Below are positions 10,860 to 15,559 of a stretch of 32,000 nucleotides of DNA, one piece after another (position 1 is the first letter of the stretch; each line of letters opens with the position of its first letter). The stretch is from positions 30,001 to 62,000 of the forward strand of contig NZ_QLIR01000002.1 of assembly GCF_003428155.1 (NCBI RefSeq), written 5' to 3'. The notes below the pieces were generated by a model. The model saw only the letters and a list, made by a program, of their open reading frames with translations, searched no databases and was not told the DNA's origin. Origin of the DNA: Fastidiosibacter lacustris. GTDB lineage: Bacteria > Pseudomonadota > Gammaproteobacteria > Francisellales > Francisellaceae. The position numbers and the translations under genes are program-made.

Positions 10860-11426
10860 ATGAGTATAAAATCCGATAAATGGATACGCACAATGGCAAA
10901 AGAACATGAGATGATTTCACCATTTGAGTCCGGACAAGTACGCCATAATGAGCAGGGGAGAATAGTCTCTTTTGGAACTTCAAGTTATGGCTATGATGTG
11001 CGATGCGCCAATGAGTTTAAGATTTTCACCAATATCAACTCCACGATTGTTGACCCTAAGGATTTTGATCACAATAACTTTGTCGATTTTGTGGGTGATG
11101 TCTGCATCATCCCGCCTAATTCGTTTGCTCTGGCGCGCACGGTGGAATATTTTAAGATTCCACGCGATACTTTAGTCGTGTGTTTAGGCAAATCAACCTA
11201 TGCACGTTGTGGCATTATTGTGAATGTGACTCCGCTTGAGCCTGAGTGGGAAGGGCATGTAACCCTTGAGTTTTCAAATACCACGCCCTTACCTGCTAAA
11301 ATTTACGCTAATGAGGGTGTAGCACAAATGTTGTTTTATCAGTCAGATGAAGTTTGTGAAACCTCATACAAGGATCGAGGAGGAAAATATCAAGGACAAA
11401 CAGGGGTGACGTTGCCAAAAACATAG
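10860..11426 (+). CDS. dcd: dCTP deaminase
   Basis: The 188-aa product begins MSIKSDKWI and has [10 protein letters not shown] and a conserved C-terminal half. I prefer the ATG at 10860 over the track's TTG at 10836, because a GAGGAG Shine-Dalgarno (10849-10854) sits 5 nt upstream of it. Confidence 0.92.
11345..11426. repeat. Left copy of the 82-bp direct repeat (attL-like); forms the functional 3' end of dcd
   Basis: 11345-11395 is identical to 15478-15528 (51/51). 11396-11426 against 15529-15559 has 8 mismatches in 31 nt. I aligned this by hand. Confidence 0.85.
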
Positions 11427-11700
11427 TAATACTCCTATGGCAGAGAACACTCTACGTGTAGTCATTTCAAGTGAAAGTAAAGTTGCTCTAAACTCATTAT
11501 TAATGGATTGGTTTAGAACATATTGTATGATAGGGGCTTCCAGAAAACTGGTTAAATAAAGTAATATAAAGATGCTGATAGCAAGAATATAAGAGTGTTG
11601 CGTGTAACCTAATACTAGAAAAGAAAGTAAAAACAATATACGCAGCCAAAAGATAACCTGCCAGTTTGTATGTTTGTTTTGACTGACTTTTGTGAAATAT
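11427..11700 (-). pseudogene. 3' fragment of an MFS-type transporter gene (remnant)
   Basis: Part of track ORF 11364-11750 reads ...APIIQYVLNQSINNEFRATLLSLEMTTRRVFSAIG, like the last TM helices of MFS proteins. There is no N-terminal half, and the ORF only closes by running into the antisense of dcd. The boundaries are approximate. Confidence 0.4.
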
Positions 11701-11759
11701 AATACGATAATTAATGTTTTCTGAGTGGTTAAAGTGAGGCAAAAAAACATGTGGAATTT

Positions 11760-12140
11760 GTTTGCATGAGAAAGATAATAAATCGCATATAAATGTTATG
11801 TCTTCAAAAGTATGAATATATTCATTCGAAGAGTATGTTAATTCTTCTGTTGAAGTTGTAGAAATAAGAGAAATATGCACTCAGAAATCCCTACTTTATT
11901 GATAGCGTAGTCATGCATTGCTTGACTACTATCAATGCAAGCGATGGCTTTAGGATCATTTTTAATTGTATACAGAGCCAGACTATGCCTTGCAGGTCCT
12001 GCACAAAGCTCTAACATATGAATTTTATCTATTTGTAAGTAGTTTTTTAGATTCAGGATTTAACCACGAAAGTCCCAATCTTGGGGAATAGTATCGTATA
12101 TTTCCGGCATGCTTTCATAAAAGTTATTAATACTATTCAT
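11760..12140 (-). pseudogene. Class I SAM-dependent methyltransferase, inactivated
   Basis: The ATG at 12140 overlaps the MFS stop by 8 nt. It reads MNSINNFYESMPEIYDTIPQDWDFRG, then an in-frame TAA (12060-12062), then ILNLKNYLQIDKIHMLELCAGPARHSLAL (motif I) and ACIDSSQAMHDYA (motif II). The frame is lost near 11880. The 3' boundary is approximate. Confidence 0.6.
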
Positions 12141-13326
12141 TTCTCACCCATAATAATGTTAACGTTGATACAAAAGACAATACCCCGATAAAAATCAGCG
12201 TATTGCCAACACCAAAATATTTATAAATTAACGTGATATTAAACCCACCAAAACTAGCTAATACTCTTTCACCAGCTGCTAAAGATAATAAACCAAAAAT
12301 ACGATTACTATCTTTGAATAGGGTATTGTTTAGCTCACCTAACGGTCCATATTCAAGATCACCAAAAACGAACATACTCAATGTCATAATAGCAAATACA
12401 ACTATATTAGACACAAAAAAACCCATCATAATAAAGCTAATTGAAAATAACCATCGCAATACAACCACTTGCCACATCAGGTTATTTGATATTAGCTCAA
12501 TGTAGCGATACAACCAAATAACGCACAATCCGCTTAGCAAGTAGATCAAGCCATAAATGCTGGAATTAACAAGCAATGAGTAATGCATTGTGTCACCAAG
12601 TATATTCTGAAATACAGGCATCCAAATAACCGCATAACCGTTATAGATAAAACCTAATATTGCAAAAAAAATCAAAACCATTAAAAACTTTCTATCACGA
12701 AAAAAATATATATGCCTAAAAAATGAAAAATTAGCATCATGGGACTTTAATGATTTACCATCAATGACCAAAAATATAGTGACGGTGTAAAATAATAAAA
12801 GCACAAATATTAATTTGAACGTATAAGCGTATCGATAAAGTTGAGTCATGAATGCACTAAAAACAATCCCTAAAAATGTTGCAAAATTTGACAGAGATTG
12901 TGTTTTGCTAAAAACCTTAGTTTTGCTGATAGAATATTGTAATTTATGAATACTATTAACATACCATCCTTGCAGCACACCTGAAAACGTTGCCATCCCT
13001 AGACCCCAAAAAACAAATGCCACATACATCAATGATAGAGTGTCACTTAATGCAAACAACAATGCAGAGAAAGCTTCTATTATTAAGCCAAAGACAAATA
13101 TTAGTTTACGGTTAGACATATCAGCTAGTATGCTCAATGGAAGTATGCCTAATATGGTTGTTATTGACATAATGGAATAACCAACACCAATACTTACAAT
13201 AGAAAAACCAATATCTAATAAAAACAGGGTTAAAATCGGAAACTTCATCGTGATGATAAATCTATAAAATGAAAAGAACAGGTAATAACTTACCGTTAAT
13301 TGAGACTCACTTAAGAGAATTTTCAC
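12133..13326 (-). CDS. MFS-like 12-TM transporter
   Basis: The 397-aa product is hydrophobic throughout, with a motif-A-like loop LADMSNRKL after TM2. Its GTG start overlaps the radical SAM TGA (GTGA overlap), which implies translational coupling. Confidence 0.75.
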   Translation of the reverse strand: MKILLSESQLTVSYYLFFSFYRFIITMKFPILTLFLLDIGFSIVSIGVGYSIMSITTILGILPLSILADMSNRKLIFVFGLIIEAFSALLFALSDTLSLMYVAFVFWGLGMATFSGVLQGWYVNSIHKLQYSISKTKVFSKTQSLSNFATFLGIVFSAFMTQLYRYAYTFKLIFVLLLFYTVTIFLVIDGKSLKSHDANFSFFRHIYFFRDRKFLMVLIFFAILGFIYNGYAVIWMPVFQNILGDTMHYSLLVNSSIYGLIYLLSGLCVIWLYRYIELISNNLMWQVVVLRWLFSISFIMMGFFVSNIVVFAIMTLSMFVFGDLEYGPLGELNNTLFKDSNRIFGLLSLAAGERVLASFGGFNITLIYKYFGVGNTLIFIGVLSFVSTLTLLWVRNE

Positions 13327-15078: not shown

Positions 15079-15189
15079 TTACCCTTCGGCATTCTGAAAA
15101 GTAACAAAACTTCTACGCAAATCACTATTTACTTTACTTGACGCAAGTTGACCAGAAAAAAAATCATTCATAATTTCTTTTGCATCCAT
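15079..15189 (-). CDS. Unannotated 36-codon ORF, candidate precursor peptide (MDAKEIMNDFFSGQLASSKVNSDLRRSFVTFQNAEG)
   Basis: I translated it by hand. The ATG at 15189 is preceded by GGAG with an 8-nt spacer, and the TAA stop is at 15079-15081. It lies 94 nt upstream of the radical SAM start on the same strand. It is too short for the ORF track. Confidence 0.4.
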   Translation of the reverse strand: MDAKEIMNDFFSGQLASSKVNSDLRRSFVTFQNAEG

Positions 15190-15216
15190 AAAAAACGCTC
15201 CTATATTGAGTTGGTT

Positions 15217-15245
15217 GATATAAATTTGATTAAACTTAATGTAAA
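15217..15245 (-). promoter_or_regulatory. Possible sigma70-type promoter for the small ORF / radical SAM cassette
   Basis: On the minus strand this reads TTTACA (15245-15240), a 17-nt spacer, then TATATC (15222-15217), about 28 nt upstream of the small-ORF ATG. The AT-rich context makes chance matches likely. Confidence 0.25.
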
Positions 15246-15477
15246 TAAGTTACAAAAAATCTCATCTCGCTAAGAGTAAAAAAAACGGTTATGTGTCAAT
15301 ATAAAACATTTAAAAAAGTTAAATTTTGTATATTTTTTATTTTCTTATGAATTTTTAGAAATGATATTATTGGTAATATATCAAAACAAAAGATTGGAAA
15401 AATAGTTTGTAAGAGCTCCTACCTAATGTGTCTTGCTTTTTTGAGGGCATTTATTCCTAACTGAATACGCTAAATCA

Positions 15478-15559
15478 AGATGAAGTTTGTGAAACCTCAT
15501 ACAAGGATCGAGGAGGAAAATATCAAGGGCAGACAGGGGTGACTCTACCAAGAGCATAA
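15478..15559. repeat. Right copy of the 82-bp direct repeat (attR-like); orphan dcd 3' remnant
   Basis: It encodes [26 protein letters not shown]-stop, in register with the dcd end (...LPKT-stop). Differences from the left copy are mostly synonymous. The sequence upstream of 15478 is unrelated to dcd. Confidence 0.85.

Follow-up and report, generated by a model that had tools for sequence, protein, structure and literature searches.

A Repeat-Flanked Islet at the 3' End of dcd in Fastidiosibacter lacustris, Probably the Remnant of an Integrative Element

Introduction

Why does the end of one gene, dcd (dCTP deaminase), stand twice in the genome of Fastidiosibacter lacustris, and how did the foreign DNA between the two copies come to be there? 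The DNA analysed, referred to here as the window, is a stretch of 32,000 nucleotides (contig NZ_QLIR01000002.1, positions 30,001 to 62,000), and all coordinates refer to it unless another locus is named. The segment between the two copies (11427-15477), called the islet below, is on balance best explained as a decayed integrative element that entered at the 3' end of dcd, supplied the gene with a replacement terminus, and has since lost its recombination module. This type of structure is known from the element e14 at icd and from remnants of conjugative elements at fda; the target gene, dcd, appears to be new.

The Repeat at the 3' End of dcd

The dcd gene (10860-11426, plus strand) is intact. 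Its product is complete at 188 amino acids, matches the Pfam family DCD (E = 1.8e-35), and is 100% identical to the F. lacustris Dcd protein. The last 82 bp of the gene (11345-11426; copy 1, attL-like) recur in direct orientation at 15478-15559 (copy 2, attR-like) as an orphan dcd 3' fragment, also on the plus strand. This fragment lies 130 bp upstream of slt (15690-17615, plus strand), which specifies a soluble lytic transglycosylase (Pfam SLT and SLT_L; 100% identical to the F. lacustris protein) and forms the right chromosomal flank. The copies start 4133 bp apart, with 4051 bp between them, and in the dcd reading frame each comprises the last 26 codons and the stop codon. The pair was recovered by BLASTN within the window with E = 4e-28, and no third copy was found there.

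Similarity between the copies starts abruptly, in frame, at the sequence AGATGA, and ends with the stop codon. Positions 1-51 are identical and all eight differences fall in the last 31 bp, a clustering with P = 2e-4 for the 82 positions compared. From copy 1 to copy 2 the codons change as GGA/GGG, CAA/CAG, ACG/ACT, TTG/CTA (two bases), AAA/AGA, ACA/GCA, and TAG/TAA. Most of these differences are synonymous, and at the protein level there are two amino acid changes and one stop codon change, copy 1 ending in LPKT-TAG and copy 2 in LPRA-TAA. An earlier, sequence-only reading of the window had described the direct duplication of the dcd terminus 4.05 kb apart, the identical block followed by a divergent but mostly synonymous tail, and the abrupt start at AGATGA, and all three were confirmed by comparison of the copies and by the repeat search. 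Both tails lie within the natural variation of Dcd ends, and no terminator was predicted after either of them.

Gene Content of the Islet

The islet is foreign in composition, with a GC content of 31.1% against 36.5-37.6% in the flanks, and its recognisable genes are all on the minus strand. Those that are intact specify a short peptide, a radical S-adenosylmethionine (rSAM) enzyme, and a transporter. The 36-amino-acid open reading frame (ORF) MDAKEIMNDFFSGQLASSKVNSDLRRSFVTFQNAEG (15079-15189) is preceded by an AGGAG Shine-Dalgarno site, has a counterpart in Photobacterium, and is a candidate precursor or scaffold peptide. The rSAM gene (13323-14984) has a longest ORF of 553 amino acids, or 539 from the NCBI start at 14942, and matches Pfam Radical_SAM (E = 9e-11); its product is 100% identical to an NCBI protein of F. 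lacustris. Its stop codon is overlapped by the GTG start of the transporter gene (12133-13326), the product of which, 397 amino acids long, belongs to the major facilitator superfamily (MFS; Pfam MFS_1, E = 2.3e-15).

The left part of the islet is pseudogenised, as had been read from the sequence before. A gene for an S-adenosylmethionine-dependent methyltransferase (11841-12140) retains only the N-terminal 85-100 or so amino acids, has lost its 3' part, and carries an in-frame stop at 12060-12062; its identity is given by the methyltransferases of the related clusters discussed below (L082, L092, L093, and L094; E = 1.5e-4 to 9e-13). Between it and dcd lies the C-terminal portion, about 120 amino acids, of a second and divergent MFS transporter (11427-11795; tblastn against amino acids 290-366 of the Photobacterium MFS protein, E = 9e-7). 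This fragment lacks the 5' two-thirds of the gene, is convergent to dcd, and abuts the dcd stop codon. The idea that it had been cut at this end by a secondary deletion was dropped. Since the fragment matches Pfam MFS_1 at profile positions 255-346 of 347, that is, to the end of the domain model, the left junction looks like the original end of the gene. At the right end of the islet there are about 290 bp of AT-rich, non-coding DNA (15190-15477; 25-28% GC).

No integrase, excisionase, transposase, or phage family was detected among the islet ORFs with Pfam, NCBIfam, or PHROGs, and no transfer genes were found between the repeats. The window as a whole contains no tRNA and no match to an Rfam family. 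Insertion of a transposon, including one of the Tn7-like type, was considered and rejected: no transposase is present, the repeat search found no terminal inverted repeats, and the duplication is 82 bp long with a divergent tail. Degenerate copies resembling the repeat core (15404-15422 and 11684-11705) were also considered as internal att remnants, but their number equals the expectation over all 19-mers of the repeat.

Comparison with 'Candidatus Nebulobacter yamunensis'

Contig JAMBMW010000002.1 of 'Candidatus Nebulobacter yamunensis' encodes exactly the same Dcd protein. This bacterium is an obligate endosymbiont of Euplotes whose genome can barely be told apart from that of F. lacustris (PMC9837558). 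Its locus (L081) is 99.6-99.8% identical to positions 860-13425 and 15277-22171 of the window, both dcd tails and the last part of the islet (15277-15477) included, but the DNA between them in F. lacustris (13426-15276), which carries the peptide gene and the greater part of the rSAM gene, is replaced by 1.1 kb of other sequence. This 1.1 kb holds the remnant of a second rSAM gene (rSAM', a 61-amino-acid ORF resembling the C-terminus of the family), a short-chain dehydrogenase/reductase (SDR) most like the SDR that follows the rSAM gene in locus L094, and a second methyltransferase gene (MT') cut down to its first 83 codons, with 86% nucleotide identity to the pseudogene of the window. A deletion at the microhomology ACTTTATTG has destroyed the rSAM and peptide genes and joined MT', with the reading frame kept, to the final 33 codons of the rSAM gene. 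The resulting chimera is a 116-amino-acid ORF (Nebulobacter locus 12464-12814, minus strand) that was called as an ordinary gene by the gene caller.

The boundary at 15276/15277 is the breakpoint of a deletion specific to F. lacustris, and the nonsense codon in the methyltransferase pseudogene, which hinges on a single-nucleotide polymorphism (SNP) at 12062, is likewise absent from Nebulobacter. The deletions differ between the two strains and are independent. Because both of the available strains bear independent deletions, and with no recombinase present, the islet fits the description of an immobilised, decaying remnant that the sequence-only reading had offered. The existence of MT beside MT', of two MFS genes, and of the rSAM' and SDR remnants indicates that the common ancestor carried at least two paralogous copies of the cluster in tandem, and that each lineage lost a different part. 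It had also been proposed that the element kept only a cargo cassette. Cargo is indeed what remains, but as a mosaic of truncated remnants from at least two paralogous clusters.

A single SNP separates the proximal tails of the two strains, and it falls on window position 11396 (Nebulobacter locus 10537), the first position at which the repeat copies differ. Nebulobacter has G here in copy 1, the same base as in copy 2 and in two Caedibacter dcd genes. Because of this G, the identity block was probably 54 bp long in the ancestor (AGATGAAGTTTGTGAAACCTCATACAAGGATCGAGGAGGAAAATATCAAGGGCA), with seven differences downstream. The A of F. lacustris may be a private mutation, or else the trace of gene conversion between the repeats.

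The locus is one of the few differences in gene content between a free-living bacterium and an almost identical obligate endosymbiont of a ciliate, and it presents the decay of an island as it happens, each lineage having its own deletion.

Origin of the Islet

The reading favoured here is that an integrative element, or a tandem array of related ones, entered within the last 82 bp of dcd by site-specific recombination, presumably of the tyrosine recombinase type. It would have brought its own copy of the dcd terminus, joining the body of the host gene to the tail of the element at 11345-11426, and dcd would have stayed intact because of this imported terminus, the original tail ending up 4 kb further downstream, at 15478-15559, close upstream of slt. 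Loss of the recombination and transfer genes would then have produced an islet with attL- and attR-like repeats but without an integrase, the state of a cis-mobilizable element (CIME). The cargo is what remains of a rare biosynthetic cluster of peptide, rSAM, MFS, and methyltransferase genes, joined in relatives by genes for an SDR and an aldolase-like protein; in both strains it is being worn down through deletions and nonsense mutations. The truncated paralogous modules may be explained by tandem accretion at the att site followed by deletion, a concept developed for such elements (PMC5704250).

Support for integration comes from the foreign composition of the islet, from the patchy distribution of its cargo, and from an anatomy of the repeats that resembles that of e14 at icd in Escherichia coli K-12. 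The truncated paralogous copies, the continuing decay, and a left junction that looks like an original gene end speak for it as well. There, as with phage 21 at the same gene, the end of the target also stands twice in direct orientation, the similarity setting in abruptly within the ORF and running to the stop codon. The copy fused to icd preserves a complete gene, and the other, displaced one is left as an orphan pseudogene (icdC). When measured, the e14 repeat was 165 bp long, with 12 differences, again mostly synonymous and again amounting to two amino acid changes. The systems differ in target gene and in the element itself, e14 being 15.2 kb in length and still encoding intE and xisE, while the dcd islet is 4.05 kb and has no recombinase. 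They also differ in how the repeat copies diverge: those of e14 have an 11-bp identical start, after which differences are scattered, whereas the dcd repeats are identical over 51-54 bp and have all their differences in the last 28-31 bp.

The present state of the islet is closer to that of CIMEs, which have lost their integration and transfer genes but kept attL and attR, and which stem from integrative and conjugative elements (ICEs) or integrative and mobilizable elements (IMEs) by decay, often as tandem accretions (PMC5704250). Those related to ICESt1 and ICESt3 at the 3' end of fda in Streptococcus thermophilus provide an example. The dcd islet is like them in being flanked by repeats, in lacking a recombinase, and in its place at the 3' end of a gene for a housekeeping protein, and it contains several truncated paralogous modules, but for dcd no functional ICE or IME relative and no integrase of the same specificity is known. 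The repeats of the streptococcal elements are short, identical att cores, unlike the 82-bp replacement terminus at dcd. On this reading the dcd repeats would be true att sites. The e14-like anatomy and the foreign insert give partial support to the claim, made from the sequence before, that the repeats are the footprint of site-specific integration.

A number of observations weigh against this reading, foremost among them the pattern of identity within the repeats. The copies agree at every wobble position over 51-54 bp and then diverge by 25% (P = 2-3e-4). Such mosaic identity would not be expected of a foreign attP and is not seen in e14; it calls for exchange between the repeats, through gene conversion or RecA, or for an origin that was not site-specific. 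The machinery of integration is missing as well. The absence of integrase, excisionase, and transposase from the islet, already claimed in the sequence-only reading, extends to the open stretches of at least 35 amino acids in 11427-12140 and 14985-15477, which matched none of these families nor a phage family, and not even fragments of an integrase, excisionase, or relaxase were found between the repeats.

Nor was an empty site found in the accessible data, the only close genome, that of Nebulobacter, being occupied. The reason lies in gene order, as Cysteiniphilum, Caedibacter, and other relatives do not have dcd next to slt. The nearest dcd locus among the matches listed, in which F. lacustris itself did not appear, is from a Caedibacter metagenome-assembled genome (MAG) and has another gene downstream; glnD comes after dcd in C. 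taeniospiralis; and upstream of the genes for the closest Slt homologues (65-68% identity; Cysteiniphilum and two metagenome contigs) there is no dcd. Exact-word scans of a metagenome collection with a 24-mer from the tail of copy 2 and a 26-mer from the core gave no matches.

The search for other elements at dcd was equally fruitless. Among 600 candidate matches listed from a scan of genome contigs with the Dcd protein, 80 dcd loci of other species were surveyed, and among those matches none of the 80 had a second Dcd tail within 10 kb. Just downstream of dcd there were 57 ORFs of the size of an integrase, and the 25 families listed for them, which take in every family that at least two of these ORFs matched, included no integrase family, a count in which a single match could be hidden. 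The plasmid collection had no match in the search for dcd attachment sites, and matches of the Dcd tail to phage sequences and to IMG/VR were to phage-borne dcd genes, mostly full-length, and not to attachment sites. The sequence-only reading had suggested looking in relatives for a larger element at dcd that still carries a tyrosine recombinase; no such element, no attP, no intact relative, and no dcd-targeting integrase turned up, and no evidence points to an active element family. The same reading had not counted dcd among the classical integration targets, and in agreement with this no paper linking dcd to an integration site was found.

Which of the two tails is the original one is a related question. 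It had been proposed that the proximal tail came with the element and that orthologous Dcd proteins would tell LPRA from LPKT. When this was examined, the ends of Fastidiosibacteraceae-like Dcd proteins were found to be almost always LPRT, from which a single change leads to either LPKT or LPRA, and among Dcd proteins more broadly LPKT, LPRT, LPKA, and LPRA all occur. The consensus thus matches neither tail and the amino acid comparison favours neither; codon usage also failed to discriminate between them. In nucleotide sequence, relatives are slightly nearer to the distal tail, which differs from C. taeniospiralis at 4 of 31 positions and from the Caedibacter MAG at 7, compared to 6 and 11 for the proximal tail and to 4.8 and 6.8 expected from gene-wide divergence. 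This points weakly to the distal tail (15529-15559) as the displaced ancestral one and to the proximal tail as derived from the element.

Chance similarity or an artefact of assembly need hardly be entertained as explanations of the repeat, given the BLASTN value of 4e-28 within the window and the recurrence of the same repeats and flanks in the independently sequenced and assembled Nebulobacter contig. A more substantial alternative, though one considered unlikely, is that imported DNA was captured by homology-facilitated illegitimate recombination, with no site-specific recombinase involved. Here a donor fragment with a dcd 3' end and the cluster would have been anchored by homologous recombination in dcd, with a crossover near 11396-11399, and its other end would have been joined 51-54 bp upstream on a sister copy, giving a duplication of host sequence and one foreign tail. 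The sharp switch from 51-54 bp of identity to 25% divergence would follow directly from such an event, a microhomology junction (ACTTTATTG) exists at the same locus in Nebulobacter, and neither a recombinase nor an att-like partner was found anywhere. It requires, however, an unusual staggered joining that duplicates host sequence instead of replacing it, and against it also stands a repeat that starts abruptly and ends exactly at the stop codon, as at icd. The donor would also have needed the cluster next to dcd, an arrangement seen in none of the six other cluster loci.

Less probable again is that 15478-15559 is what remains of a second dcd gene, either borne by a phage or element or left from an old tandem duplication, that lost its first 485 bp and in which gene conversion made the 5' part of the remnant uniform with the resident gene. 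In this case it is the distal tail that would be foreign, and the resident dcd would never have been interrupted. Mobile dcd genes do exist, in six contigs of IMG/VR (78% identical, and next to a terminase gene in the one examined) and in many jumbo phages; the SNP at 11396, at the boundary of the identity block and with the base of the other copy, may be a trace of such conversion; and neither tail has the family consensus LPRT. Yet the distal tail is slightly closer to relatives in nucleotide sequence, the fragment holds exactly the terminus and nothing upstream of it, the cargo genes are compositionally foreign and all lie between the copies, and the islet contains no other remnant of a phage or of genes associated with dcd. 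All three readings, site-specific integration, illegitimate recombination, and a second dcd, agree that the DNA between the repeats was acquired, is now immobile, and is eroding.

If site-specific integration is correct, dcd joins icd, fda, trmE, rlmH, and guaA as a gene whose 3' end serves as a landing site and is rebuilt by the incoming element, which would be useful for island-finding software and for integrase bioprospecting.

A Rare Peptide and Radical SAM Cluster

The cargo of the islet belongs to a gene cluster that is very rare. Only nine relatives of the rSAM enzyme were found among 5.8 billion protein cluster representatives, and an exhaustive HMMER search of 1.84 billion representatives gave 33 clusters at E <= 1e-30; beyond the close relatives, matches were to the generic rSAM core only. 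The protein consists of a Rossmann-like N-terminal domain, a CxxxCxxC core with the sequence CVYKCDFC, which is invariant in eight homologues, and a helical C-terminal domain. No chain in the Protein Data Bank (PDB) was matched by sequence, no NCBIfam model was matched at its cut-off, and Pfam gave no B12-binding match. A structural model (predicted local distance difference test score, pLDDT, of 76.7) had OxsB, TsrM, AprD4, CysS, and TokK as its best fold matches in the PDB. Of these, OxsB, TsrM, CysS, and TokK are of the cobalamin type (class B), and AprD4 is an enzyme without cobalamin. By its predicted fold the islet enzyme is best described as class-B-like. Neither this enzyme nor the peptide nor the aldolase-like partner of the related clusters matched a curated family.

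The neighbourhoods of four rSAM homologues provided six loci for comparison (L082, from Photobacterium, and L092-L096). Together they represent three further arrangements besides that of Photobacterium, with a recurring set of genes in unrelated organisms. In Photobacterium sp. WH24 (L082, 9844-14618) the cluster consists of genes for a peptide, the rSAM enzyme, an MFS transporter with 46% identity over its full length to the intact transporter of the islet, a methyltransferase, and a class-II-aldolase-like protein of 348 amino acids. The other loci combine peptide, rSAM, SDR, methyltransferase, and an aldolase-like protein of about 340 amino acids, with or without a second SDR. In one of them, L094, the cluster adjoins genes for XisH/XisI and HicA.

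The 36-amino-acid peptide of the islet has 44% identity (E = 8e-10) to an equally long ORF of Photobacterium, found in the corresponding place upstream of the rSAM gene there. They share a C-terminal motif, F[VI]x[FY][QL]..EG, with a 57-amino-acid ORF in L093, and in a scan of six sequences (the window and five loci) these three ORFs were the only ones to match it. No peptide homologue was recognisable in L092 or L094-L096, and the peptide is conserved in only three of the six distinct cluster arrangements.

In general plan the cluster resembles those in which class B rSAM enzymes act with a peptide, such as clusters for ribosomally synthesised and post-translationally modified peptides (RiPP-like) or other peptide-derived products: the rSAM gene is immediately preceded by a small, conserved gene for a peptide, and an exporter and genes for tailoring enzymes (methyltransferase, SDR) are seen across the relatives. 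The islet departs from that plan in its broken methyltransferase gene, in the missing SDR and aldolase-like genes, and in its lack of matches to curated families. In F. lacustris the peptide, rSAM, and MFS genes are intact, but with a methyltransferase pseudogene and neither an SDR nor an aldolase-like gene, the pathway probably no longer works. Intact copies of the cluster, such as that of Photobacterium sp. WH24, offer a route to its characterisation.

A wider proposal can be made tentatively, and is more likely to fail than to hold as a whole. It is that the 3' end of dcd is the attachment site of an undescribed family of Fastidiosibacteraceae-like elements, and that their cargo specifies a new pathway to a peptide-derived natural product or cofactor. 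Such a pathway might join a motif-bearing peptide of about 36 amino acids, a class-B-like rSAM enzyme, an SDR, a methyltransferase, a class-II-aldolase-like protein, and an exporter. Under this proposal F. lacustris would hold the last intact trio of peptide, rSAM, and exporter genes, and its endosymbiotic twin would have only just lost the cluster.

The Left Flank and Phage-Borne dcd Genes

Between mrp/apbC and dcd lies a gene for a restriction-modification enzyme in a single chain of 1325 amino acids (6869-10846, plus strand), with the domains N6_Mtase, Eco57I, and Methylase_S. Its first 4 bp are shared with the end of mrp/apbC (6872), and 14 bp separate its own end from dcd. F. lacustris and Nebulobacter differ by 54 SNPs over 12.5 kb, 13 of which are concentrated in 9000-9500, the region of the specificity domain of this enzyme. 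In the Caedibacter MAG (L001), a gene of 367 codons at the position of mrp/apbC (a candidate by position) ends 10 bp before dcd.

The six IMG/VR phage contigs mentioned above (L086-L091) are related to each other and carry a full-length, bacterial-type dcd with 78% amino acid identity to that of the window. In L087, the only one of the six to be examined for this, the gene (9479-10045, minus strand) is directly upstream of the gene for the large terminase subunit. Two further phage sequences carry dcd genes of altered form. In IMGVR_UViG_3300005684_000072 (L124; 1796-2041, minus strand) an 81-amino-acid 'mini-Dcd' consists of N- and C-terminal segments fused to each other, with the catalytic middle missing, just upstream of a phage lysozyme gene. 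In IMGVR_UViG_3300042268_000050 (L125; 4816-6630, plus strand) dcd is interrupted at a conserved site by an in-frame intein of about 400 amino acids, with the insertion at ...GKSTYAR|C...HN|.

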